This document shows, one piece after another, positions 8,970 to 59,358 of a DNA stretch of 64,000 nucleotides; position 1 is the stretch's first letter, and every line of letters starts with the position of its first letter. This stretch comes from Terrimicrobiaceae bacterium (lineage in GTDB: Bacteria > Verrucomicrobiota > Verrucomicrobiia > Chthoniobacterales > Terrimicrobiaceae). The translations under genes were made by a program, and so were the position numbers. Under the pieces are notes generated by a model. The model made no database searches. It had not been told where the DNA came from and saw only the letters and a list, made by a program, of their open reading frames with translations. The stretch is from contig JBAYWC010000002.1 in the NCBI GenBank assembly GCA_041674265.1, positions 8,380 to 72,379 on the forward strand, read 5' to 3'.

Positions 8970-9098
8970 GCGAGCCGGGCAGTCTAAGCGGAAACCTTCG
9001 TTCTTGGCATGCAAATTCTCGCTTGGGGGTTTGCCTGCAGATGCTCTATCCTTGATTTTTTGCCAGCCTCCATTCCTGTGAACCCCGCCCCGACTCCC

Positions 9099-10169
9099 AT
9101 GCCTCCGGCGCCGCCCGACAACCGCGGGCGCTTCCTCGCCGCCTGCCGGTGCAGGCCGGTGGATGGCACGCCGGTCTGGTTGATGCGCCAGGCCGGACGC
9201 GCGCTCCCGGAATATCGGGCGCTGAAAGAAAAGCACCCATTTATCGAACTCGTCCGGACCCCGGAGCTTGCCGCGGAAGTCACCCTGCAGCCGGTCCGTC
9301 GTTTCGGCTTCGATGTCGCGGTTTTGTTCAGTGACATCCTCGTCGTGCCGGAGGCGATGGGCCAGCCGTATCATTTCCGGGAAAATGGCGGCGGGATCGA
9401 AATGGAATTTGCCGTGCGGTCGGCGGAGGACATCCGGCGGCTGGATCACACGCATGCCCTGGAGCGGCTTCAATATGTCGCCGACGCGCTGGCATTGATC
9501 AAACCCGGGCTGGGCGGACGCACCGCTCTGCTGGGCTTTGCGGGATCGCCGTGGACGCTCGCCCGCTACATGATCGAAGGGGGGAGTTCGGGCGACTCCG
9601 ACCGGGCGAAGGCGCTCTTTTATTCCGAACCGCGCCTGTTCGGGGAACTTATGGAAAAAATCACCGCCGTGGTGGCCGGTTTTTTACAAATGCAGGTCGC
9701 CGCCGGCGCGGAGGCGCTGCAGATTTTCGACAGCAACGGCGACATCCTCGCCGACAACGCCTTCGAGGCCGCCTCGGGGCGCTGGATTCGCGAGATCATC
9801 ACGGCGCTGGAGGGAAAAGTGCCGGTGGTCCTTTTCTCCAGAGGGGCGCATGGCAGATTGGCCGATCTTGTCTCTACCGGAGCCAATGTGTTGAGCGTGG
9901 ACTGGATGCAGCCGCTGGCCGGAATCCGCAGGCAGTTGCCGGACGGAGTCGGCGTGCAGGGCAACCTCGATCCTTTTCTGCTCACCACCACGCCGGAACT
10001 CGTCGCGCGCGAAACCACGCGCATCCTGCGCGACATGGCCGGGCTCACCGGCCATGTGTTCAACCTCGGCCACGGGGTGCCGCCGACGGCCAAACTCGAA
10101 TGCATCCAGGCACTCGTGGACACCGTGAGGGATTTTAGAGAAGTAAGAAGGCTGAAGGAGGAAGGATGA
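9099..10169 (+). CDS. hemE: uroporphyrinogen decarboxylase
   Basis: RFLAACRCRPVDGTPVWLMRQAGRALPEYR signature. Start set at the internal ATG at 9099. Confidence 0.9.
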   Translation: MPPAPPDNRGRFLAACRCRPVDGTPVWLMRQAGRALPEYRALKEKHPFIELVRTPELAAEVTLQPVRRFGFDVAVLFSDILVVPEAMGQPYHFRENGGGIEMEFAVRSAEDIRRLDHTHALERLQYVADALALIKPGLGGRTALLGFAGSPWTLARYMIEGGSSGDSDRAKALFYSEPRLFGELMEKITAVVAGFLQMQVAAGAEALQIFDSNGDILADNAFEAASGRWIREIITALEGKVPVVLFSRGAHGRLADLVSTGANVLSVDWMQPLAGIRRQLPDGVGVQGNLDPFLLTTTPELVARETTRILRDMAGLTGHVFNLGHGVPPTAKLECIQALVDTVRDFREVRRLKEEG

Positions 10170-10257
10170 AGTGGCAGCCTCCCGTGCATGGCTTGGCCCT
10201 CGTGGTTACAGGCCCCCGCTTCCTACTTCAGCCTTCAGCCTTCGACCTTTTCTTCCC

Positions 10258-11634
10258 ATGAGCGCGCTGCACGTCGATCTCGATCTGGTCAAAAAATACA
10301 ACGTCGCCGGGCCGCGTTACACGAGCTACCCGCCGGCAACGAAGTTCAGCGAAAGCGCCCCGCTGGACGAACTCGGCGCGCGCATCGAAACGAACAACAT
10401 CTCCGCAAGCGATCTCTCGGTCTATTTTCACATCCCGTTTTGCGAGACCCTCTGCTGGTTCTGCGGCTGCACGACCGTCATTACTCTCAACCACGACAAG
10501 GGCGCGGACTACATCGATTATCTCGGACGCGAGGTCGCGAGGATGGCGCCCCGGTTGAATCCCGCGCGCAAGGTCGTCCAGCTCCACTTCGGCGGCGGGT
10601 CGCCGACGTTTTTGCGTCCGGATGAAATCCGGAGGCTCGGCGCGATCATCCACAAACATTTCACCTTTTCGCCGGGAATCGAAGCGAGCGTGGAGGTCGA
10701 CCCGCGCCGGCTCACGCGCGACCATCTGGTCGCCCTGCGCGAGATCGGGTTCAACCGCGCTTCGATGGGCGTGCAGGATTTCAATCCGCAGGTGCAGGAA
10801 GCGATCCATCGGATCCAGCCCCCCGAAATGACCCGCCAGGCGATGGATTGGATGCGCGAACTCGGCTTCGGCTCGATCAACCTCGACCTCATCTACGGGC
10901 TGCCGCACCAGACGCCGGAGTCGTTCGGCGAAACGCTGGACACGGTTCTCGCCATGCAGCCGGACCGCCTCGCCATGTTCAGCTACGCGCACGTTCCCTG
11001 GATCAAACCGGCCCAGAAAATCCTCGAGGCGAAAATCCTGCCCTCGCCGGAGACCAAGTTGCAGGTCCTCAAGCTGGTCATCGAAAAACTGACCGCAGGG
11101 GGCCGCTACGTTTACATCGGCATGGACCATTTCGCGCGGCCCGGCGACGAACTCGCCGTCGCCCAGCGCAACAAGCAGCTCCAGCGGAATTTCCAGGGCT
11201 ACAGCACGCGCTCCGGCTCGGACATCTACGCGTTCGGGATGTCTGCCATCTCGCAAATCCCGGATGCCTACTGGCAGAACGAAAAGGAACTGCCGAAATA
11301 CCAGGGAGCCGTCGATGCCGGGCGGATGCCGTGGCACCGCGCCTATTTCGTGACCGAGGAGGACAAAATCCGGCGCGAAACCATCATGCGCGTGATGTGC
11401 GACCTGTCGCTCGACTTCGCCGCGATGTCGCAAAAGCTGGGCCTCGACTTCGAGGCCCACTTTGCCGCGGAACTCGCCGCGCTTGCGCCGTTCCAAAGCG
11501 ACGGCCTGGTGGAACGCACCCCCGGCGGCTTCGCAATCACCGACAGCGGGCGCCTCTTCATCCGCAACATTGCGATGTGCTTCGACAACACGCTGGCACC
11601 CGCGGGCGAGCGGAGGCACTCGAAGACGGTCTGA
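10258..11634 (+). CDS. hemN: oxygen-independent coproporphyrinogen III oxidase (radical SAM)
   Basis: MSALHVDLDLVKKYNVAGPRYTSYPPA opening and the radical-SAM cluster motif CETLCWFCGC. Confidence 0.9.
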   Translation: MSALHVDLDLVKKYNVAGPRYTSYPPATKFSESAPLDELGARIETNNISASDLSVYFHIPFCETLCWFCGCTTVITLNHDKGADYIDYLGREVARMAPRLNPARKVVQLHFGGGSPTFLRPDEIRRLGAIIHKHFTFSPGIEASVEVDPRRLTRDHLVALREIGFNRASMGVQDFNPQVQEAIHRIQPPEMTRQAMDWMRELGFGSINLDLIYGLPHQTPESFGETLDTVLAMQPDRLAMFSYAHVPWIKPAQKILEAKILPSPETKLQVLKLVIEKLTAGGRYVYIGMDHFARPGDELAVAQRNKQLQRNFQGYSTRSGSDIYAFGMSAISQIPDAYWQNEKELPKYQGAVDAGRMPWHRAYFVTEEDKIRRETIMRVMCDLSLDFAAMSQKLGLDFEAHFAAELAALAPFQSDGLVERTPGGFAITDSGRLFIRNIAMCFDNTLAPAGERRHSKTV

Positions 11635-13040
11635 TGAAATCCGTCGCGATCATCGGCGCGGGCATCACGGGGCTGACCGCGGCATTTTATCTCAAACGCG
11701 CGGGCATCCCTGTCGTGATCTACGAGTCGGGCAGCCGGGTCGGCGGCGCGATCCGGTCTCTCCGGCAGGATGGCTATCTTGCGGAGTTCGGGCCGAACAC
11801 GATTCTGGAAACCTCGCCGAAAATCACGCGCCTCCTCCGCGACGCGGGCCTGGAACCCCGCCGGCTCGATCCCGCCCCGGAGGCGGATGCGCGTTATGTG
11901 GTGAGGGACAAACGCCCGATTGCCATGCCCGGCTCGCCGCTCGGGTTTTTGACGACAAAACTCTTTTCCCTCCAGGCCAAGCTGGCTGTGCTGCGCGAGC
12001 CGTTCGTGCCGCCGCGCCGTGATGGCGTGGAGGAGAGCGTCGCCGAATTTGTCCTGCGACGGTTGGGCCGGGAATTTCTCGCCCATGCGATCGACGCGAT
12101 GGTCGCCGGAGTTTACGCGGGCGACCCCGCTAGGCTGTCCCTCCAGCAGGCCTTCCCAAAACTCGCCGCGATCGAGGCCAAATATGGCTCGCTCATCAAG
12201 GGGCAGATCTTTGGTGCGCGTGAGCGCAGGAGACGCGGCGAGGTCGCCAAGGATCGTGCGCCAAAATTCTCCTTCGACGAGGGACTGCAAGTGCTGCCCG
12301 ACACACTGCTCGCGCACCTCGGCGACGCGGTGCAACTCAACACCCTGGTCACGAAGGCAACCCGGCATTCCGACGGTTGGACGCTTGGCCTCCGGACGAA
12401 TGACAGCGGATCGCGTTCTCATCACAGTGCGGTCATTTATGCGGGCACGGCATACGGCCTCGCGAAGTTGCAGGTCGAACTGATGGCTCCGGCCTCCGGT
12501 TCATCCATCGGAAATCCGCTCGACCTTTCGCCGTTTTCCGAAATCCGTCATCCGCCCGTGGCAAGCGTGGTGCTCGGTTTCCGGCGCGAAGACGTGACGC
12601 ATCCCTGCCAGGGGTTCGGCGCATTGATTCCGAATGTCGAGGGGTTCAGGATTCTCGGCACGATCTTTTCTTCGTCGCTGTTTCCGAACCGTGCGCCGGC
12701 CGGACATCTCACCCTCACCAGCTACATCGGCGGCGAACGACATCCCGGGCTGGCTTCCCTGCCGCCGGACGAACTTTTCGACCTGACCCGGCGGGATTTG
12801 CGCGCGCTGTTCGGGGCGAATGGCAGCCCGACATTCCGGCATTGCGCGTTTTTTCCCAAGGCCATCCCGCAATACAATCTCGGCTACGGGCGCTTCCGGG
12901 AACTGATGGCCGAAATCGAAACAAAAGCGCCGGGCCTGTTTTTTGCCGGACATTACCGCGACGGGATTTCGTTGGGCGATTCCATCGTCTCGGGCTGCAA
13001 CATCGCCCAACGGGTTGGGAAGTCCCTGACCATCGCATGA
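11634..13040 (+). CDS. hemY: protoporphyrinogen oxidase (HemY-type FAD oxidase)
   Basis: MKSVAIIGAGITGLTAAFYL dinucleotide-binding opening. The start overlaps the hemN stop (TGATG). Confidence 0.85.
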   Translation: MKSVAIIGAGITGLTAAFYLKRAGIPVVIYESGSRVGGAIRSLRQDGYLAEFGPNTILETSPKITRLLRDAGLEPRRLDPAPEADARYVVRDKRPIAMPGSPLGFLTTKLFSLQAKLAVLREPFVPPRRDGVEESVAEFVLRRLGREFLAHAIDAMVAGVYAGDPARLSLQQAFPKLAAIEAKYGSLIKGQIFGARERRRRGEVAKDRAPKFSFDEGLQVLPDTLLAHLGDAVQLNTLVTKATRHSDGWTLGLRTNDSGSRSHHSAVIYAGTAYGLAKLQVELMAPASGSSIGNPLDLSPFSEIRHPPVASVVLGFRREDVTHPCQGFGALIPNVEGFRILGTIFSSSLFPNRAPAGHLTLTSYIGGERHPGLASLPPDELFDLTRRDLRALFGANGSPTFRHCAFFPKAIPQYNLGYGRFRELMAEIETKAPGLFFAGHYRDGISLGDSIVSGCNIAQRVGKSLTIA

Positions 13041-13114: not shown

Positions 13115-13312
13115 ATGCCCACAACACTCGAAACCATCACACGCGAAGCGCTGGAAGTGCCCCGCCAACAGCAAATCCGGCGCGCACATTATCTACTTTC
13201 GCCCGGCGACGAGCCGGTCGATCTGGAAGTCGAAGCTGCATGGGATACGGAGATCCGCGCCCGGCTGAAAGCCTGCGATGAAGGAAAGCTGGAGACCGTG
13301 CCCTTCGAGTAA
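13115..13312 (+). CDS. addiction-module antitoxin-like ORF (TIGR02574-like), truncated by an in-frame TAA relative to its paralog at 17495
   Basis: 65 aa, about two-thirds identical by hand alignment to the antitoxin at 17495-17734. Homology continues past the stop (see pseudogene 13313-13365). Confidence 0.55.
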   Translation: MPTTLETITREALEVPRQQQIRRAHYLLSPGDEPVDLEVEAAWDTEIRARLKACDEGKLETVPFE

Positions 13313-13365
13313 GTAAAACGGGAGATAGAATCCCGTCTGCGCTAATGCAAACAACCTTTTCTTCC
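13313..13365 (+). pseudogene. remnant of antitoxin C-terminus plus the first ~7 codons of a ParE-like toxin
   Basis: Reading on in frame gives VKREIESRLR*CK, against EVKRDIAARLRECK* in the intact copy. ATGCAAACAACCTTTTCT (MQTTFS) at 13345 matches the ParE start ATGCAAGTAACGTTCTCG (MQVTFS) in the same overlapping register. Similarity then fades. Confidence 0.6.
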
Positions 13366-13421
13366 TCCACATCGGCCTTCGATTCTGGCATGACTCCCCG
13401 CTTTCTGATCTCAAAGTCGAC

Positions 13422-14684
13422 ATGACACCCAAACCTCCAGTTTTGCCTGAGCGCCCCAAGGATCGCTTCGAGGTTTATCGGCTTTTTGACGGGATCTCCA
13501 GTGAGGGAAAAGAGGGGATCGATCAGGGACGAACCCGCACTCCCTTGGTCAAATCTTTTCTCGTCGAGCATGTTTCCTCCACCAGGGGAAGGCAAACCCG
13601 CACTCCCCAAGAAATCTGGTCACGCTTGGGGGGAAGTCCGCACCCGATTGATTCAGACTTTTTTTCCATTCAAGGAACGGTGAGGGATGAATCTGGAACC
13701 CGGCAGACAACCGTTGGCTATTTGGAGCGCTACGACGAACGCTTCTTCGCCTACTACACCACGGAAGTTTCCCAGAGTGCCAAAAAGCGCGTGACAAAGT
13801 GGATCCAGAAATCTCCGGATCTCGATTCCTGCTGGTTCAACAGCGATCTTCTCCAGGTTCTTTGGAACCGGGATGTTTCACGGCGCGGGGACCAGCGATT
13901 CGGCAAGCTGACGTTCAAGCACGAGAGCATTTTTGAGATGCCCGTGAATGCCGAGGATTCGGAAGAGGAACCCGATGAGGACGCCCGGACAGAGGATTCC
14001 GATCTTGAGGAACAAGCCGGACCGGAGAGGAGGAAGGCCCGCTTTGACATGAGCGACCGCATCGGGCGCATCAAGCAGTCGCTGGGCAATCTCCAGGAGC
14101 AGTATCTTCCGCTTTACGCTCTTTATTCGCTCCGCTTTCCCTCACGACTCGGAAGGGGCAGCCACGACCTCTACCAGCATGGTCAGCTCACCAATCGCTC
14201 CGATAGCTTCGAGGACCATCGCGGCACGGCCCTCTATCTCCATCAAGTTTACAAAAATATCCTTGAGAGCACGGAGTCGAAAGCCTGGAGCGATTCGGAA
14301 ACCTCATTGAATGCCGCTACGCGGCCTCACAAAGGCGTGCCGCTGATTGTCCGTTTCGCCGAACCCCTCACCGAGACCACTTTCAAGCAATGGATTTCGC
14401 GCGCCTTCCACAAGAAGAATGTTTTTCGGCTCTGGGGCGAACCCATCTGGATGGGGCCGACGAAGGTTCATGTCTATGGAGCAGACCGACACCTCTGGCA
14501 GCCGCTGAATCTTGAAATCACAGGGGAGGGAATGGTTGCCATCCTCCCGAAAGGAACGTGCGGAAATACCTTTCACCGGCTTGTCACCAACATCCAGCGG
14601 TATGTCTGCCCGAAAGTGGATGCCTGGGTGGGCAGCACTCCGCTCACGGACCTCATGTCACAGGCCACCGGCTCGGAAAATTAA
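13422..14684 (+). CDS. hypothetical protein, island gene 1 (420 aa, no recognised motif; central acidic tract)
   Basis: Long ORF in the island. Contains NAEDSEEEPDEDARTEDSDLEE. Ends 4 nt before the next ORF. Slightly lower GC than the core genes. Confidence 0.7.
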   Translation: MTPKPPVLPERPKDRFEVYRLFDGISSEGKEGIDQGRTRTPLVKSFLVEHVSSTRGRQTRTPQEIWSRLGGSPHPIDSDFFSIQGTVRDESGTRQTTVGYLERYDERFFAYYTTEVSQSAKKRVTKWIQKSPDLDSCWFNSDLLQVLWNRDVSRRGDQRFGKLTFKHESIFEMPVNAEDSEEEPDEDARTEDSDLEEQAGPERRKARFDMSDRIGRIKQSLGNLQEQYLPLYALYSLRFPSRLGRGSHDLYQHGQLTNRSDSFEDHRGTALYLHQVYKNILESTESKAWSDSETSLNAATRPHKGVPLIVRFAEPLTETTFKQWISRAFHKKNVFRLWGEPIWMGPTKVHVYGADRHLWQPLNLEITGEGMVAILPKGTCGNTFHRLVTNIQRYVCPKVDAWVGSTPLTDLMSQATGSEN

Positions 14685-14688
14685 TGCG

Positions 14689-15033
14689 ATGACACCTGCT
14701 GAACTGATCCGCGATCTTTCACTTGAAGTGTCCGCTCAACAGTTGCTCCGTGAAACCACGCAGGGAACCGTCATCTACCTCCCCCGGCAAAAGCAGCAAA
14801 GGATGGAGAAACTCGTCGTCGAGAATATTTTCAAACGCGTCCGGGAAGTTTGGAAGGACAAGCATCCCGACTTGATCCGACTTGAGGGGAGAACCATGAC
14901 GATCAATTTTGAGTCCGACCTCCGCCGTGACGATTTCCTTGACTGGCTTGAGGACGGAGACAAAACGAAATTCTCCGACAAGGCTCCTCCTCCGGAAACC
15001 CCCGAGTTTCCCGGCATGTTCTCCCAATCATGA
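14689..15033 (+). CDS. hypothetical protein, island gene 2 (114 aa)
   Basis: ATG at 14689 (MTPAELIRDLSLEV...). 22 nt upstream of the mod start, same strand. No recognised motif. Confidence 0.55.
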   Translation: MTPAELIRDLSLEVSAQQLLRETTQGTVIYLPRQKQQRMEKLVVENIFKRVREVWKDKHPDLIRLEGRTMTINFESDLRRDDFLDWLEDGDKTKFSDKAPPPETPEFPGMFSQS

Positions 15034-15055
15034 GTCTCGCTCGGAATTCTTTTTC

Positions 15056-17410
15056 ATGCCCACTCTGAACTGGATCGGCAAGGAAGCCGTCGTCAACCAT
15101 CACCACCAGGTCCCGTTTCGTTTGCTCAACGACGTGCCGGATCTTGCATGCGGCGAACCGGGCGCGGGAAACCTCATCGTCGAGGGCGACAACCTCGAAG
15201 CCCTCAAGGCCCTCCTGCCCTACTACGCCGGACAGGTGAAGTGCATCTACATCGACCCGCCTTACAACACGGGCAACGAAGGCTGGGTTTACAATGACAA
15301 CGTCCGCAGCCCGATCATCGGGGAGTGGCTCGGAAAGACCGTCGGCAAGGAGGGCGAAACCCTCGACCGCCACGACCGATGGCTCTGCATGATGTATCCT
15401 CGCTTGGCCCTGCTGCGCGAGTTTCTGCGGGAGGATGGGATTTTGCTGATCACGATTGATGATGCTGAAGTGGAGAGTGCCATAGTTCTCGGAAATGAGA
15501 TTTTCGGCCGCAATAATAACCGAGCGACAATTATTTGGCAGCATAGCGTTCAGCCCAAAGGCTATTCTGGGAAAATTTCAATTCACCACAACTACCTTCT
15601 GGCATTTGCAAAATCTGAAGCGTTCACCTTTCGGGATATTCCACGAAAAGAGGAACACAACGCGAACTACTCCAATCCTGACAATGACCCAAATGGTCCG
15701 TGGCGGTCTGGCGATGTGCGGAATGCACTTTATCGCCCAAACCTCATTTACGACTTAGTCACGCCATCTGGAAAAATCATCAAACCGCCGACAAAAGGCT
15801 GGCGCTGGAGCAAGGAGACGATGACCGAAAGAATTCGGACTGGTGAAATTGTTTTTCGGGCAGATGAAACAAGAATTGTTCGGAAGATTTATCTCAATAA
15901 TCAAGAGGGTCGCGCCCCAGAGTCGATTTGGTTTGGTGAGGACGTTGGAACAACCCGCGATGCGAACCAAGAGCTTAAAGACATATTTACCCACTCCCCG
16001 TTTGATACCCCGAAGCCAACAAGCCTACTTGAACGCATCCTTCAAATTTGCACCAACCCCGGCGACCTGGTATTGGATTCCTTCGCCGGAAGCGGGACGA
16101 CGGGCCATGCGGTATTGAAAATGAACGCCGTAGAAGCGGCGTCCCGCCGCTTGGAATTGGAGGGAAAGACGCAGGATGCGTCTTCTACGGGAAGCGGGAC
16201 GACGGGGCACGCGGTATTGAAAGCGAACGCCGTAGAAGCGGCGTCCCGCCGCTTGGAAAACGAGGGCAAGACGCAGGATGCGTCTTCTACGGTGAACTAT
16301 TTCGACCCGTCTGAATCGGTGGCTCATTTGACCGGGAATCTGCCGCACTGGCGGCAGGATGGGGCGACATATTTTGTGACATTCCGGACAGCGGACTCGA
16401 TGCCGCAGGCCAAACTCAAGCAGTGGTTGGATGAGCGCAATGAGTGGATGGAGGAACATCCGGAACCCCACACATCCGCCGAACGCCAGGAATACACGAA
16501 GCTTTTCCCACAGAGGTTTCAGAAGTGGCTGGATGAGGGATACGGACCGTGCCACCTTGCAAGGCCCGACGTGAAGGCGATTGTCGAAAATGCGTTGAGT
16601 CATTTCGACGGGACCCGTTACCGGCTTGGGGAGTATGTCGTGATGCCGAACCACGTCCATGTGCTGGTGTCGCCGCTGGGCGAGCATGTGCTTTCGGACA
16701 TCCTACAGGCTTTGAAATCTTTCACGGCAAAGGAAATCAACCGTCTCATCGGCGAGACGGGACATTTTTGGCAGAAGGAATCCTTCGATCACATCGTGCG
16801 CAGCCCGGAGCAGATGGAACGGATCAAGGAATACATCCGGGACAATCCAAAAGCAGTAGAAGCGGCGTCCCGCCGCTTTGGAGCAAAGACGCAAGATGCG
16901 TCTTCTACGACTCGGCGTTTCATTCTCGTTGAGATGGAGCCGGAGATTGCGCCGAAGATCACGGCGGAGCGGGTGCGGCGGGTGGCGGAGGGCTACAAGA
17001 ACGCCAAGGGCGAGAAGGTTGCCGGGCTCGGCGGAGGGTTCCGCTATTGCCGTCTCGGCGAGCCGCTTTTCGATGCCGACCGGCAGATCCGTCCGTCCGT
17101 GACATTCGGCGAGTTGGCGCGGCATGTGTATTTCACCGAGACCGGCGAGCCGCTTCCGCGCGAGCGGGTGCCGAATACCCCGCTGCTCGGCGTGTGCCGT
17201 GGCGTGGCGATTTACCTGCTCTACAACGGCATCCTTGGCGACAAGAGCACGAATGGCGGCAACGTGCTGACCCGCGCCGTTCTGTCCAAGCTGCCGAAGT
17301 TCGACGGCCAGAAAGTGATCTATTGCGCGGGCTGCCTGCTCGGGACCGGGCGCCGGAATGCCGCGCGGATCGTGATCCGACAAACCCCCTACGAAATCCG
17401 CACGACATGA
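15056..17410 (+). CDS. mod: Type III-like R-M methyltransferase (Mod, beta-class N6-adenine MTase) carrying an in-frame REP/RAYT insertion
   Basis: MPTLNWIGKE opening, motif IV IYIDPPYNTGNEGW and motif I SFAGSGTTGHAVLKMN. The usual continuation RRFILVEMEP...GLGGGFRYCRLGEP...IRQTPYEI resumes only after an ~780-nt insert. The whole stretch remains one open frame. Confidence 0.85.
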   Translation: MPTLNWIGKEAVVNHHHQVPFRLLNDVPDLACGEPGAGNLIVEGDNLEALKALLPYYAGQVKCIYIDPPYNTGNEGWVYNDNVRSPIIGEWLGKTVGKEGETLDRHDRWLCMMYPRLALLREFLREDGILLITIDDAEVESAIVLGNEIFGRNNNRATIIWQHSVQPKGYSGKISIHHNYLLAFAKSEAFTFRDIPRKEEHNANYSNPDNDPNGPWRSGDVRNALYRPNLIYDLVTPSGKIIKPPTKGWRWSKETMTERIRTGEIVFRADETRIVRKIYLNNQEGRAPESIWFGEDVGTTRDANQELKDIFTHSPFDTPKPTSLLERILQICTNPGDLVLDSFAGSGTTGHAVLKMNAVEAASRRLELEGKTQDASSTGSGTTGHAVLKANAVEAASRRLENEGKTQDASSTVNYFDPSESVAHLTGNLPHWRQDGATYFVTFRTADSMPQAKLKQWLDERNEWMEEHPEPHTSAERQEYTKLFPQRFQKWLDEGYGPCHLARPDVKAIVENALSHFDGTRYRLGEYVVMPNHVHVLVSPLGEHVLSDILQALKSFTAKEINRLIGETGHFWQKESFDHIVRSPEQMERIKEYIRDNPKAVEAASRRFGAKTQDASSTTRRFILVEMEPEIAPKITAERVRRVAEGYKNAKGEKVAGLGGGFRYCRLGEPLFDADRQIRPSVTFGELARHVYFTETGEPLPRERVPNTPLLGVCRGVAIYLLYNGILGDKSTNGGNVLTRAVLSKLPKFDGQKVIYCAGCLLGTGRRNAARIVIRQTPYEIRTT
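16129..16189 (+). repeat. REP doublet 1 (CGTAGAAGCGGCGTCCCGCCGCTT ... AAGACGCAGGATGCGTCTTCTACG)
   Basis: Two inverted hairpin units (AAGCGGCG/CGCCGCTT and AAGACGCA/TGCGTCTT) bracketed by CGTAGAAG/CTTCTACG. Confidence 0.85.
16231..16291 (+). repeat. REP doublet 2
   Basis: Same structure as doublet 1, exactly 102 nt downstream. Confidence 0.85.
16856..16909 (+). repeat. REP doublet 3 (shorter spacer)
   Basis: GTAGAAGCGGCGTCCCGCCGCTTTGGAGCAAAGACGCAAGATGCGTCTTCTAC, directly after the RAYT YIRDNPK motif. Confidence 0.85.
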
Positions 17411-17420
17411 AAACTGGATA

Positions 17421-17470
17421 CGTAGAAGCGGCGTCCCGCCGCTTGCAAAGCGACAAGATGCCGCTTCTAC
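17421..17470 (+). repeat. REP doublet 4 (intergenic, between mod stop and antitoxin start)
   Basis: CGTAGAAGCGGCGTCCCGCCGCTTGCAAAGCGACAAGATGCCGCTTCTAC. The first arm is identical to doublets 1-3; the second arm is a variant. Confidence 0.8.
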
Positions 17471-17494
17471 TTGATAAAACGAAAGGAAAACGCC

Positions 17495-17734
17495 ATGGCA
17501 ACAACACTTGAAGTGATCACGCACGAGGTGCTGGAACTACCCCGCTCCCAGCAAATCCGCCTTGCCCATTATCTTCTCTCGCTGGATGACGATCCGGTGG
17601 ATCCGGAAATCGAAGCCGCGTGGGAGAATGAAATCTGCGCCCGCATGCAAGCGTATCGTGAGGGGCGGCTGGAAACTGTTCCATTTGAAGAGGTGAAACG
17701 GGACATCGCAGCCCGCTTGCGCGAATGCAAGTAA
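17495..17734 (+). CDS. addiction-module antitoxin (TIGR02574-like), partner of ParE
   Basis: MATTLEVITHEVLELPRSQQIRLAHYLLSLDDDPVDPEIEAAWENEI... AGGA lies ~7 nt upstream of the ATG at 17495. Overlaps the toxin start by 10 nt. Confidence 0.8.
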   Translation: MATTLEVITHEVLELPRSQQIRLAHYLLSLDDDPVDPEIEAAWENEICARMQAYREGRLETVPFEEVKRDIAARLRECK

Positions 17735-18012
17735 CGTTCTCGCCTCAAGCCCGCGAAGAAATCGCGGAAGCTGCGCTCTACTACGAGGGACAGCAAAGTG
17801 GGCTGGGTTCGGAATACACGGAAGAGGTGTATGCGTTCGTGCAGATGGTGACCATCGCTCCGGAGCAGCCGAGACTCAGGCGTCGTGGTTATCGAAGAGT
17901 GAATCTGGATCGTTTTCCTTACTACATCGCCTATTCGATTGAAACCGGAGTCATCTTGATTTTGGCTATCGGCCATGCTGCCCGAAAGCCCGAATACTGG
18001 ATAAAGCCATGA
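17725..18012 (+). CDS. parE: ParE/RelE-family type II toxin
   Basis: 95 aa. MQVTFSPQAREEIAEAALYYEGQ...RRVNLDRFPYYIAYSIETGVILILAIGHAARKPEYW is typical of the plasmid-stabilisation ParE/RelE fold. Its stop overlaps the res start (ATGA). Confidence 0.8.
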   Translation: MQVTFSPQAREEIAEAALYYEGQQSGLGSEYTEEVYAFVQMVTIAPEQPRLRRRGYRRVNLDRFPYYIAYSIETGVILILAIGHAARKPEYWIKP

Positions 18013-20702
18013 TCCAACTGAAGGACTACCAACAGCGGGTGCTGGAAAGCCTGCGGGCTTTTCTGAAACGCACCGCGCAAACGCGACATCCGGCGGAAGC
18101 CTTCCACGAGGTCACAGAAAAAGTCTATGGCGAGCCGCTGACCTACATTCCGGCCACGGCGGCGGGCCTGCCATCGGACATGCCGTATGTGTGCCTGCGC
18201 GTCCCAACGGGCGGAGGCAAGACGCTTCTGGCCTGCCATGCAGTGGGCATCGCGCAGACCGAGCTTCTGCGGGCCGAACACAGCGTGGTTCTCTGGCTGG
18301 TGCCGAACAATACGATCCTTGAGCAGACCGCCGACGCATTGCGCGATGTCCAGCATCCCTACCGCCGGGCGCTGGAACTCGAATGCGCCGGACCGGTCGA
18401 GGTGCTGCGGATTGATGAGGCGCTCAACCTGACCCGCGCCCGTGTCGAAGGCGCGACTGTGGTTATCGTGGCGACGATGCAAAGCTTCCGTGTCGAGGAC
18501 ACGACCGGACGCAAGGTCTATGCGCCGAGCAGCCCGTTTCAGGATCATTTTCTCAACCTGGCCCCGCAGGACAGCGCGCGGCTTTTCGAGGGGCCGGACA
18601 AGAAGCCGATCCCGAGTCTGGTGAACATGCTGCGGCTTCGACGGCCGATCGTGATCGTGGACGAGGCGCACAACGCCCGCACCGACCTTTCCTTTGCCAC
18701 GCTGGGAAATCTCCTGCCCTCGTGCATCATCGAATTCACCGCTACGCCCGCCACAACCAAGCAACCGTCGAATGTGCTGCACCGGGTATCCGCAGCCGAA
18801 CTCAAAGCCGCCGACATGGTGAAGCTGCCGCTGCGGGTCATCGCACGGGATCCGAGCCAGCGGGAGCAACTGCTCAGCGAGGCGCTTTCCCTGCGGGCCG
18901 ATCTGGAAAAACTCGCGGCCATCGAGGGCCAGCACACCGGCGAATATCTCCGGCCGATTCTGCTCATTCAGGCGGTTCGGGTGGATGACTGCAAGGACCT
19001 CAAAGCCCGGCTGGTCGCCGAGTTCGGCCTGAACGAGGCGGAGATCAAAATCTCCGTGGGCAGCTTGGATGAACTCGAAGCGATCAAGGACATCCGCGCG
19101 ACGAACTGCCCGGTGCGGATCATCATCACCGTGCAGAAACTTCGCGAGGGCTGGGATTGTCCGTTCGCGTATGTGCTGTGCAGCCTGCGCGAGACGCGGA
19201 GCGCCACCGCCATCGAGCAGATTGTCGGCCGCATACTCCGGCTTCCCGGTGCCACGCCGAAACAACATCCGGATCTCAACTGCGCGTATGCTTTTTCCGT
19301 CTCCGATTCGATGCCGGAGGTTCTGAACGAGCTGCGGCAGGCATTGGAGAGCAACGGGTTCACTCCCGCCGAGGCCGAGCGCATCGTGCTGCCGGGCGGA
19401 CAATCCACACTCGGGCTCGGGGTTCAGCCGCAGACGGTCACTGTCAATCCTGTCACGGAACTCGATGCCGCCGTGGCCCAGATCCAGAGCGGAGCACTCG
19501 CCGGAAAAGTGCGTATCAATGTGGAGAAAGGCGAGATCACGGTCATTGCCCCCCTGACTCCGGAAGAATCCGAAATGGCCGAAAGCGTGGTAAAAACGCC
19601 CGGGGCCAAAACCAAGATCCGGCAGGCCGTGCAAAAAGTGATCGAGGCCGAGAAGGCGATGGGCGGCACCGGCGCGGCCCGCGCCGCGAGCGGATACGAG
19701 CAGCAACTGGATTTCATCGTGCCGCTCCTCTGCGTGGACGAGGACGGCGAGTTGTTGGAATTTGAGAGCACGTTCCTCCTCGAACATCCGTGGAAACTGA
19801 GCGCGAAGGACGCCGCGCAGCCCGCGCACTACAATCCGCTTCAACGTCCGACCGGCGTGCTCGGGGTGATCGATGTCGGGGCCAAGGGCACGGTCGAGGG
19901 AGTGACCGTCGCCCGCGATGAGGCCGAGGATTTTATCGCCACGCTCCACCAGCAGACGCTCCAGCTCGGCGGTGACAGCCATTGGTCGCTCGAAGCCCTG
20001 GTGGCATGGATCGACGTCCGCATTCCGCACGAAGACATCCCCATGGGAGAATCCGCCGGGTTCCTGCGAAAAGTCGTTCGCGGCCTCATGGCACAACACG
20101 GATTGCAGGATGTGGACACCATCGCCCTGGACCGCTTCCGCCTGCGTGATGAGGTCGAGGATCTGATCCAGGCCCATCGCATCCACGAGAGGGAGGCTGC
20201 CTTCAAGAATTGGCTCCTTCCGGAATCCGCTCTGTCAGTGAGCGACGCGCGCGCGCTGAACTTCAAGACAAGCAGCTACGAACCGAGCTGGCTTTACGAG
20301 GGTGGACATCAGTTCAAGAAACACTACTTCGGTCCGGAGCCCGGCGAACTCCGCGAGAAGAAATCCGACGGCAAGCTGACGGAAGAGTTCCAATGCGCCT
20401 GCTACCTCGATGCGCTTCCCGCCGTGCTCTGGTGGGTGCGCAACCTGTCCCAGAAGAGCAGTTCATTCCGCCTTCAAACTTCCAAGCAGTGGTTCTTCCC
20501 CGATTTCATCTGCCAGCTTACCGATGGCCGGATTATGGCGGTGGAATACAAAGGAAAACACCTGTGGAATGATGCCGAAGAAAAGCGCGCAGTCGGGGCC
20601 GTATGGCAATCCCGGAGCAAGGGACAGTGCGTGTTTGTGATGCCAACAGATGGCGATTTTGGAGTCATCGGGAAAACCTGTCTTTCGGGAGCGAGGGAAT
20701 GA
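18009..20702 (+). CDS. res: Type III-like restriction enzyme Res subunit (SF2 helicase plus C-terminal PD-(D/E)xK nuclease)
   Basis: Walker A VPTGGGKTLLA, DEAH box IVIVDEAHNAR, and the C-terminal FFPDFICQLTDGRIMAVEYKGKHL nuclease-like motif. 897 aa. Confidence 0.85.
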   Translation: MIQLKDYQQRVLESLRAFLKRTAQTRHPAEAFHEVTEKVYGEPLTYIPATAAGLPSDMPYVCLRVPTGGGKTLLACHAVGIAQTELLRAEHSVVLWLVPNNTILEQTADALRDVQHPYRRALELECAGPVEVLRIDEALNLTRARVEGATVVIVATMQSFRVEDTTGRKVYAPSSPFQDHFLNLAPQDSARLFEGPDKKPIPSLVNMLRLRRPIVIVDEAHNARTDLSFATLGNLLPSCIIEFTATPATTKQPSNVLHRVSAAELKAADMVKLPLRVIARDPSQREQLLSEALSLRADLEKLAAIEGQHTGEYLRPILLIQAVRVDDCKDLKARLVAEFGLNEAEIKISVGSLDELEAIKDIRATNCPVRIIITVQKLREGWDCPFAYVLCSLRETRSATAIEQIVGRILRLPGATPKQHPDLNCAYAFSVSDSMPEVLNELRQALESNGFTPAEAERIVLPGGQSTLGLGVQPQTVTVNPVTELDAAVAQIQSGALAGKVRINVEKGEITVIAPLTPEESEMAESVVKTPGAKTKIRQAVQKVIEAEKAMGGTGAARAASGYEQQLDFIVPLLCVDEDGELLEFESTFLLEHPWKLSAKDAAQPAHYNPLQRPTGVLGVIDVGAKGTVEGVTVARDEAEDFIATLHQQTLQLGGDSHWSLEALVAWIDVRIPHEDIPMGESAGFLRKVVRGLMAQHGLQDVDTIALDRFRLRDEVEDLIQAHRIHEREAAFKNWLLPESALSVSDARALNFKTSSYEPSWLYEGGHQFKKHYFGPEPGELREKKSDGKLTEEFQCACYLDALPAVLWWVRNLSQKSSSFRLQTSKQWFFPDFICQLTDGRIMAVEYKGKHLWNDAEEKRAVGAVWQSRSKGQCVFVMPTDGDFGVIGKTCLSGARE

Positions 20703-21736
20703 GCTTCCAGCACAAACCGGGCGTTTTGTTGATGAATCTCGGATCGCCGGATTCGACCTCCGTGTCCGACGTGAGGGAATACCTGCGCGAGTTTCTCATG
20801 GACCCGCGCGTGCTCGACTCCCCGTGGCTTGTCCGCTGGTGCGTGGTCCATTTCGCGATCCTGCCGACCCGCCCCGCGCAATCGGCGGAGGCCTACGAAA
20901 AAATCTGGACGAAGGGCGGCTCGCCGCTCGTCGCCACAAGCCGCAACGTGCAGCGCGAGATGCAGCGCCGGTTCGGGGACGGCGCCGTCATCGAACTCGC
21001 GATGCGTTACCGGAACCCCGGGATCGGGTCCGCCATCCGGCATCTGCGCGAACAGGGAGTCACGGACCTTTTGGTGTTCCCGCTTTTTCCCCACTTTGCG
21101 ATGTCGAGTTTTGAAACGGCGGTTGTCCGCGCGCGGGAAGTCGCCGCCCGGCTGGCGCCGGAGATGAAGCTGAAAATCGCGGAGCCGTATTACGACGACC
21201 CCGGCTACATCGCGGCGCTCGCCGCCAGCGCGGAGGATTTCCTCGATGCGGGCTACGATCATCTGCTGTTCAGTTTCCACGGTCTGCCCGAACGTCACCT
21301 CCGCAAGGCCAACCCGGGCCATTGCCTGGCCGCCCCCAACTGCTGCGAAACCCCCGGCCCCGCCCTCCACACCTGCTACCGCGCCCAATGCTTCGCCACC
21401 GTCCGCGCCTTTGTCGAAGCAACCGGCGTCCCCACAAACAAGCACTCGGTCTCCTTCCAGTCGCGGCTCGGACGCGATCCCTGGCTCAAGCCCTACACCG
21501 ATTTCGAGTTCACCCGTCTTGCCGGAACCGGCGTCAAAAAACTTCTGGTCATCTGCCCGGCCTTCGTCTCCGACTGCCTCGAAACCGTCGAGGAAATCGC
21601 CATCCGCGGACGCGCAACCTTCCTCGAAGCCGGCGGAACCGAATTCGCCCTCACCCCGTGCATGAACGAGCATCCACGATGGCTCGAAGCGCTGGAAAAA
21701 ATCCTCCGCGCGGAATTGCCGGCGAACCAGGACTAG
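20699..21736 (+). CDS. hemH: ferrochelatase
   Basis: MSFQHKPGVLLMNLGSPDSTSVSDVREYLREFLMDPRVLD opening. The ATG overlaps the res stop. Confidence 0.9.
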   Translation: MSFQHKPGVLLMNLGSPDSTSVSDVREYLREFLMDPRVLDSPWLVRWCVVHFAILPTRPAQSAEAYEKIWTKGGSPLVATSRNVQREMQRRFGDGAVIELAMRYRNPGIGSAIRHLREQGVTDLLVFPLFPHFAMSSFETAVVRAREVAARLAPEMKLKIAEPYYDDPGYIAALAASAEDFLDAGYDHLLFSFHGLPERHLRKANPGHCLAAPNCCETPGPALHTCYRAQCFATVRAFVEATGVPTNKHSVSFQSRLGRDPWLKPYTDFEFTRLAGTGVKKLLVICPAFVSDCLETVEEIAIRGRATFLEAGGTEFALTPCMNEHPRWLEALEKILRAELPANQD

Positions 21737-28878: not shown

Positions 28879-28953
28879 GCCAGGGTAGCTCAGCGGTAGA
28901 GCAGGGGACTCATAAGCCCTTGGTCGGGAGTTCGATTCTCCCCTCTGGCACCA
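28879..28953 (+). tRNA. tRNA with anticodon CAU (Met or lysidine-modified Ile2), CCA encoded
   Basis: Cloverleaf folded by hand. Acceptor GCCAGGG/CTCTGGC, D arm GCTC-AGCGGTA-GAGC, anticodon loop CTCATAA, T arm GGGAG-TTCGATT-CTCCC. The body resembles E. coli ileX (GAGCAGGCGACTCATAATCGCTTGGTCG). Confidence 0.85.
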
Positions 28954-59019: not shown

Positions 59020-59280
59020 GTGCGCCGGGGAAGCCGGCAGCCACGTGGGAGGAAGTCCCACCGGTCGAATGAGACGGTTTACGACCGGAAGAGACCCAAG
59101 CGCAGCATGGGAACGCCTGCAGCGACGAACGGCTCCACGATCACTACGGCTTGGTCAACATCCCCATGCGCACCAAATGGCAAACCTCATGAAGCAAATC
59201 GAAGAACGGCACTCCGAGAGCCGGATGCGGGCAATCCGCACGTCCGGTTCGATGAGGGGGAGTTCCCCACGACGGTCATT
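59020..59280 (+). mobile_element. truncated, ORF-less group II intron remnant (5' GUGCGCC plus domains V and VI)
   Basis: GAGCCGGATGCGGGCAATCCGCACGTCCGGTTC (59218-59250) matches the domain V consensus GAGCCGUAU...GNRA...ACGUACGGUUC, including the AGC triad and the AC bulge. A DVI-like GGGG-AGTT-CCCC hairpin with an unpaired A follows. GTGCGCC at 59020 matches the intron 5' consensus. The ~260-nt total is far too short for a complete intron. Confidence 0.6.
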
Positions 59281-59358
59281 GGCCTCCGCGCCTCTCAACC
59301 CCGTCTGGGTCTCCCTACCCCGCTCAAGCGCTGAAATCGCCGATTGCAACTCTCGCAG

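Follow-up and report, generated by a model that had tools for sequence, protein, structure and literature searches.

What are two tightly coupled open reading frames (ORFs) doing at the head of a Type III restriction-modification (R-M) operon in a Terrimicrobiaceae bacterium (Verrucomicrobiota; GenBank assembly GCA_041674265.1, contig JBAYWC010000002.1, positions 8,380 to 72,379 of the forward strand)? Within this stretch of 64,000 nucleotides, which we call the window and whose own numbering is used throughout, ORF A (420 aa) occupies positions 13422–14684 and ORF B (114 aa from its ATG) positions 14689–15033, both on the + strand. A preliminary description had placed the two ORFs here, 4 nt apart and with 22 nt between ORF B and mod, and had proposed them as candidate new components of defense or control; the placement and both gaps are borne out by the raw sequence and its list of ORFs, with the mod ATG at 15056. 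Our analysis points to a conserved two-gene, nuclease-based cassette that probably serves in defense and of which the window holds a copy disarmed by deletion, and this is the reading that we favor with moderate confidence. ORF A is the first gene of that cassette, and ORF B is what is left of the second, which we have termed the partner.

ORF B is a deletion remnant rather than an independent small protein. As a query it returns only itself, in the form of an identical 114-aa protein from a Terrimicrobiaceae NCBI genome, and one fragment, while a tblastn search places a B-like segment ~780 nt past the end of A in nearly every A locus that was fetched. The closest relative, locus L050, whose A is 94% identical to that of the window, has a partner of 350 aa that starts 4 nt after A and ends 22 nt before mod, and the 350-aa partner with the same two spacings is also found in the close relatives L052, L053 and L055. 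BLASTP aligns residues 1–8 of B with residues 1–8 of the full-length L050 partner, and residues 9–114 with residues 245–350 at 90% identity. Comparison with L050, L055 and L052 shows that 708 nt (236 codons) have been lost in frame, with GATC microhomology at the breakpoints and the junction at 14713–14716 on the + strand. Partner residues 9–244, which include the PD-(D/E)xK motif described below, are gone from the window, leaving B without the predicted catalytic domain. Because the deleted allele is carried unchanged by four metagenome contigs from different samples (L001–L004), and because the identical protein is present in the NCBI genome, the deletion is not an assembly artifact. The preliminary description had noted an acidic DFLDWLEDGD segment in B; the segment is indeed present, but it is a conserved motif of the partner, and B is no small acidic protein but the remnant of a 350-aa gene. 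Since the predicted nuclease domain has been lost, the window copy is less valuable as an exemplar of the cassette.

What B retains is the first 8 residues of the partner and its C-terminal domain, in which DFLDWLED is the best-conserved motif, with W322 and D325 invariant. Weak Foldseek matches to the Cdt1 C-terminal domain and the cohesin head module suggest that this domain may be winged-helix-like; B itself gives no match to a helix-turn-helix (HTH) model and none to Pfam or NCBIfam at E up to 1. The ratio of non-synonymous to synonymous substitution rates (dN/dS) for the retained part is 0.08–0.09, and in the window lineage it has accumulated 12 synonymous and 3 non-synonymous changes, with no sign of relaxed constraint. 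For this reason the remnant may still function rather than be dead: the constraint would reflect a recent deletion or else some remaining activity of the remnant, for example in binding A or DNA.

The full-length pair is found well beyond the window lineage. In 30 of 35 GTDB species-representative loci, A is immediately followed by a partner of ~350–360 aa, the exceptions being truncated contigs or degraded copies, and the gene calls show the two genes separated by 4 nt or overlapping by 11 nt. The pair also occurs on Bacillus plasmids and probably on an extrachromosomal element of M. jannaschii. Besides these plasmids and this archaeal element, the range of the family takes in Verrucomicrobiota, Planctomycetota and Acidobacteriota. 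One of the two genes is split over two frames in several loci (the partner in L016/L040 and in L022, the A homolog in L029 and L031); these are either frameshifts or sequencing errors in metagenome-assembled genomes, and they may mean that the cassette decays often. On Bacillus and Metabacillus plasmids, the gene immediately before the A homolog is MazF/PemK-like and ~240 aa long (L058, 7049–7786; L060, 7045–7761), and it may be a third component of the cassette in Firmicutes.

The nature of the lost domain can be judged from the intact partners. The partner family comprises 61 matches, 53 of which were aligned together with window ORF B to give 54 sequences. In this alignment conservation reaches 90% or more at P72, E88, A89 and K90, and most sequences have D or E at position 73. 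In an AlphaFold2 model of the partner (predicted local distance difference test score (pLDDT) 92, predicted template modeling score (pTM) 0.88) the residues of the PD...ExK motif fall on successive strands of a core with alpha-beta-beta-beta-alpha-beta topology; Foldseek returned no match to the model at E < 0.08. Counted by entry descriptions, PD-(D/E)xK nucleases nevertheless make up ~27 of the top 50 Foldseek matches in the PDB, none of them significant (best E 0.084), and the nucleases matched include YaeQ, N.BspD6I, Can2, an arenavirus cap-snatching endonuclease, DdmD, BstEII and CdiA-CT. The motif extends to distant members of the family, as the partner on Bacillus cereus plasmid pBFR_2 (hhalign 97%, E 2.4e-11 against the partner profile) carries PE...ECK, and the gene that follows MJECL33 in M. 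jannaschii reads TPDVIL...FECK. The same segment of the M. jannaschii gene has sub-threshold Pfam matches to L_protein_N, HSDR_N_2 and DUF234, all PD-(D/E)xK families. A Pfam search of 54 partner homologs at a permissive threshold gave noise only. As no model matches the partner and no Foldseek match is significant, it is the motif, the topology and the enrichment among structural matches that carry the assignment, and on these we consider it likely that the partner is a PD-(D/E)xK nuclease with predicted cleavage activity.

ORF A, for its part, is a genuine gene on which purifying selection acts strongly, with a dN/dS of 0.065–0.074 against close relatives. Its homologs number 584 at E ≤ 0.001, and the best 120 of these 584 are 54–94% identical to A and all ~400–515 aa long; a profile built on A and run against 1.84 billion cluster representatives finds 553 clusters. 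A protein identical to A carries the precomputed Pfam label PF25924 (MJECL33), as do all 120 listed homologs, in every case without a mark of weakness or faintness. The label is taken from this precomputed annotation, since the local Pfam copy with which A and B were scanned did not include the PF25924 model. MJECL33 itself, the protein of the M. jannaschii extrachromosomal element pDSM2661_1 that gave the family its name, matches residues 249–393 of A (tblastn, E 6e-7), and an alignment of diverse homologs shows that the motifs GK.T.R, VD.H and CGNT..R are common to the two proteins and to the family at large. To our knowledge PF25924 is a family without assigned function, so membership in it is mechanistically uninformative. 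From bacteria to the archaeal member, E49, D135, D355 and R386 are invariant and K44, H357, C380, N382 and Q392 are at least 90% conserved, and these polar residues could form a binding or catalytic site. The sole PHROGs match for either ORF is that of PHROG 22469, of unknown function, to residues 250–400 of A. Searched against the sequences of the PDB, neither A nor B nor the partner profile gave a match.

The AlphaFold2 model of A (pLDDT 82, pTM 0.85) is of low confidence at only two spots, residues 176–203, which fall in the acidic tract, and residues 294–300. A Foldseek search of the PDB and BFVD with this model returned nothing at E < 0.001, the best match having an E of 0.009 and the TM-scores being at most 0.30. 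Among the top 50 PDB matches, however weak, at least 31 are TBP or TBP-like folds (TBP, RnlA, CENP-L) when counted by entry descriptions, and the predicted secondary structure of A shows a recurring beta-alpha-beta4-alpha pattern. Judged from the model, A looks like several TBP-like modules arranged in a novel architecture.

The acidic tract bears on two proposals of the preliminary description, that one of these ORFs might be a DNA mimic or a controller that times restriction. The tract, NAEDSEEEPDEDARTEDSDLEE, is present in A as described, and its 31 aa (residues 173–203, positions 13938–14030 on the + strand) have an isoelectric point of 4.05. Residues 176–203 have a pLDDT below 50, indicating a disordered linker, and alignments show that the tract varies in length and sequence among A homologs, distant members having only a short tract or none. 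The folded halves on either side are basic, with isoelectric points of 9.3 and 9.5. We therefore reject a DNA mimic, as the acidic residues lie in a disordered, unconserved linker between basic halves. A controller of the C-protein type is rejected as well, since no HTH model matches and the small ORF derives by deletion from a 350-aa protein. The likeness to R-M C proteins and to mimics such as Ocr and ArdA is confined to the position at the operon head and the acidic segments.

What the pair is for has to be judged from the company that it keeps, and we surveyed three ORFs on each side of it in 32 GTDB loci. N6_N4_Mtase (7) and ResIII (6) are the commonest families among the 160 neighboring ORFs, the remainder being mostly unrelated housekeeping genes, and an R-M gene is next to the pair in ~8 of the 32 loci, leaving about three quarters without one. 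Five loci have the order ResIII-(Bro-N)-A-partner-methyltransferase-methyltransferase and one more has both methyltransferases upstream; a Nitrospiraceae genome has methyltransferase-A-partner-ResIII. Type I hsdM/hsdS immediately follow the pair in one locus, and a DUF6079 protein lies beside it in another. Metagenome relatives add the arrangements SNF2-A-partner-methyltransferase-HATPase-Res and A-partner-SNF2-170-aa ORF-AIPR-76-aa ORF-Fic-methyltransferase. On B. cereus pBFR_2 the pair adjoins the Hachiman genes hamAB, and on the M. jannaschii element it stands beside an OLD-like 'ATP-dependent endonuclease' and EVE, PIN and VapBC genes. Annotation against the PDB of the ORFs upstream in the distant loci L026, L033 and L035 yielded nothing beyond an EAL domain. 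Among close relatives of the window, A-partner-mod-(toxin-antitoxin)-res is found in three different chromosomal settings, and for this reason we conclude that A, partner, mod and res move together as four genes in this lineage.

These contexts allow an explanation in which A and the partner serve Type III or Type III-like systems as dedicated accessory subunits, acting as an extra nuclease, a specificity factor or a regulator of the timing of restriction, so that A and the nuclease-less B of the window would still modulate Mod and Res. It would account for the at least four architectures in which the pair and Type III-like genes form tight operons (A-partner-mod-res; ResIII-BroN-A-partner-methyltransferase-methyltransferase; mod-A-partner-ResIII, in L034; and SNF2-A-partner-methyltransferase-HATPase-Res), for N6_N4_Mtase and ResIII being the commonest neighbors and for the purifying selection still acting on the retained part of B. 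It fits poorly with the three quarters of loci that have no R-M gene within three ORFs, with those that adjoin Type I R-M or Hachiman instead, and with the failure of any HTH or controller model to match B. In addition, the translation of the window Res keeps its own C-terminal PD..ExK motif (FFPDFIC...AVEYKGK), and restriction would therefore be independent of the pair. We consider a dedicated accessory role unlikely, and an obligate Type III subunit is rejected, given that R-M genes stand beside the pair in only ~8 of 32 loci and that neither protein is homologous to Mod or Res. A dedicated Type III role is not supported by these loci; what is supported is that several lineages have the pair inside Type III or Type III-like R-M operons.

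The gene order invites a second explanation, namely a toxin-antitoxin-like addiction module in which the partner acts as toxin and A, encoded upstream, as its antidote, stabilizing the island or plasmid that carries them, the toxin of the window having been disarmed by the deletion. An antidote upstream of a toxin, translational coupling, occurrence on plasmids and neighbors that are MazF-like, VapBC or ParE would all suit such a module, and a deletion that takes precisely the predicted catalytic domain is what typically befalls toxins. A, however, is very large and conserved for an antitoxin, with ~20 invariant or nearly invariant residues, mostly polar, shared from bacteria to archaea, and it is strongly constrained although the predicted toxin domain is gone. 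Neither protein matches a known toxin or antitoxin family, and we regard an addiction module as improbable.

The patchy distribution across phyla and domains, and the compact ~2.3 kb cassette set among unrelated housekeeping genes, would also be compatible with a selfish mobile element, such as a nuclease of the homing type, aided by a DNA-binding helper, that plays no role in host defense. Examination of the neighboring ORFs revealed no recombinase or transposase consistently associated with the pair, and strong family-wide sequence conservation and the repeated embedding in R-M operons argue against an element of this kind, which we hold to be very unlikely.

A conserved, uncharacterized pair that is enriched in defense contexts makes the proposal of candidate new defense components a reasonable one at the level of the family, because of these contexts and because the pair is absent from PADLOC-DB v2 and from the literature that could be searched. 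A and B gave no match to the local Pfam copy, NCBIfam or PADLOC, in which mod and res were matched instead. A search of PADLOC-DB v2 with A, B, eight partner homologs and 24 diverse A homologs produced two chance-level matches only (E 0.011 and 0.025), and the searchable literature held nothing relevant on PF25924/MJECL33, on the pair or on TBP-like nucleases with anti-phage activity. The A family is already catalogued in Pfam, but its pairing with a PD-(D/E)xK protein and its distribution over defense islands are, as far as these tools show, undescribed.

A nuclease effector with a sensing partner is a familiar kind of system, and several known systems offer likenesses of different kinds. There is a functional analogy to McrBC (Type IV), in which a PD-(D/E)xK subunit is likewise encoded directly downstream of a larger DNA-recognizing partner; the pair, too, would work without a cognate methyltransferase and often lies beside R-M systems. 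In contrast to McrB, A has no match to a P-loop or AAA+ family model in Pfam or NCBIfam, and there is no similarity of sequence or fold to McrB or McrC. Hachiman (HamA, a PD-(D/E)xK nuclease, with the helicase HamB) and Shedu (the nuclease SduA) share the combination of a divergent PD-(D/E)xK effector and a partner or domain for sensing, but no PADLOC model matches A or the partner, nor is A a helicase. Canonical Type III R-M of the EcoP15I kind is represented by the typical Mod and Res downstream, with A-partner-mod-res moving as a unit in relatives, yet A and the partner are unrelated to these subunits and the pair is mostly found without R-M genes. The matches of A to TBP, CENP-L and RnlA (the last bringing to mind the RnlA/LsoA toxins) are weak but repeated, and A differs in its TM-scores of at most 0.30, E values of 0.009 or more, lack of a HEPN domain and lack of a detectable internal sequence repeat. 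The C proteins, Ocr and ArdA differ from the two ORFs in the respects already given, namely the missing HTH match, the remnant nature of B, the unconserved linker and the basic halves of A.

Several observations weigh against the cassette being a nuclease-based defense module. Most loci have housekeeping neighbors, and relatives were found neither in a phage collection searched by tblastn nor in a scan of IMG/VR viral contigs. The structural side is affected too, as A has no significant Foldseek match (best E 0.009), hhalign, run on the putative modules of A against one another, showed no internal sequence repeat that would back a multi-TBP-module architecture, and the partner is matched by no Pfam, PDB-sequence or PADLOC model and by no significant Foldseek entry (best E 0.084). 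The unrelaxed constraint on the retained part of B is not what a simply disarmed copy would lead one to expect, and we found no experimental or literature support for a role in defense.

With these points weighed, we still favor a conserved defense cassette, and we hypothesize that it works as follows. The first gene (~420 aa, MJECL33/PF25924) would encode a basic protein of TBP-like alpha/beta modules that binds nucleic acid and whose role is to sense or target foreign DNA or else to regulate the partner, with which it may form a complex. The second (~350 aa) would encode the predicted PD-(D/E)xK endonuclease, acting as a DNA-cutting effector. The translationally coupled genes could then constitute a self-contained restriction-like or abortive defense module that travels alone or inside R-M operons, the mobile unit in the window lineage being A-partner-mod-res. 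The 708-nt deletion at the GATC microhomology took the entire predicted nuclease domain of the second gene from the window copy, which has probably lost its effector activity and become non-functional because that domain is deleted. If the full-length pair is a working defense module, it would add to the prokaryotic immune systems a new family with an unrecognized sensor fold, and it would show the grafting of such modules into Type III R-M operons. A bolder version, which we put forward tentatively and hold to be more doubtful than not, is that the MJECL33-family protein and its PD-(D/E)xK partner form an undescribed system against mobile elements in Bacteria and Archaea, with a sensor of TBP-like modules and a conserved polar site that is possibly catalytic, which supplies an extra layer of defense within R-M operons; window A and the 114-aa remnant would perhaps be kept for a second, regulatory role.

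The remainder of the operon lies on the same + strand as A and B. The third gene, mod (15056–17410, 784 aa), is matched by the PADLOC model MTase_III (E 2.5e-186) and by Pfam N6_N4_Mtase and Y1_Tnp, and res (18009–20702, 897 aa) by PADLOC REase_III (E 1e-126) and Pfam ResIII; an Unstab_antitox/ParE toxin-antitoxin pair identified by Pfam occupies the interval between them (17495–18012). Mod and res are present as the preliminary description had it, but the arrangement departs from a canonical mod-res in that mod contains a repetitive extragenic palindromic (REP) insertion with a REP-associated tyrosine transposase (RAYT) segment and the ParE pair intervenes. The whole island (~7.6 kb, 13116–20702) splits a heme-biosynthesis cluster, with URO-D, HemN and an amino-oxidase/protoporphyrinogen-oxidase-like gene upstream (9009–13040) and ferrochelatase downstream (20603–21736). 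A promoter and terminator scan gave counts no different from the shuffled level. This one defense island has undergone several structural changes, among them the deletion of the partner nuclease domain, the REP/RAYT insertion in mod and a nonsense mutation in an antitoxin paralog.

The insertion in mod is in frame, adds ~257 aa at ~16088–16909 relative to the 558–561-aa mod of close relatives, and consists of two tandem 102-nt units, a segment coding for a RAYT/IS200-like Y1 transposase and another REP. Each 102-nt unit repeats the motif-I codons and a REP hairpin. A fourth REP copy lies 3' of the mod stop codon (17421–17471), and the REP core occurs at these four places only in the 64-kb window. 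Elsewhere in the protein, the N-terminal 120 residues of Mod are ~98% identical to those of L055 and the C-terminal 165 residues 96% identical, while residues 121–300 (15416–15955), the presumed target-recognition domain, are strongly diverged, a pattern that suggests a swap of the specificity domain.

The Unstab_antitox/ParE pair overlaps the start of res; L053 and L055 have the same insertion, and L052 lacks it. At the left edge of the island, an orphan antitoxin paralog (13116–13312, + strand) has a weak Unstab_antitox match and 68% identity to the antitoxin at 17495–17731, and this similarity runs past a premature stop codon. As no toxin gene is adjacent to it, and in view of the premature stop, the paralog is probably a decayed toxin-antitoxin remnant. 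Two further features of the window are unrelated to the pair: Rfam identifies a tRNA-Met at 28879–28953 (+ strand) and a group II intron catalytic domain at 59216–59323 (+ strand), the latter scoring 43.5 bits against a gathering threshold of 40.

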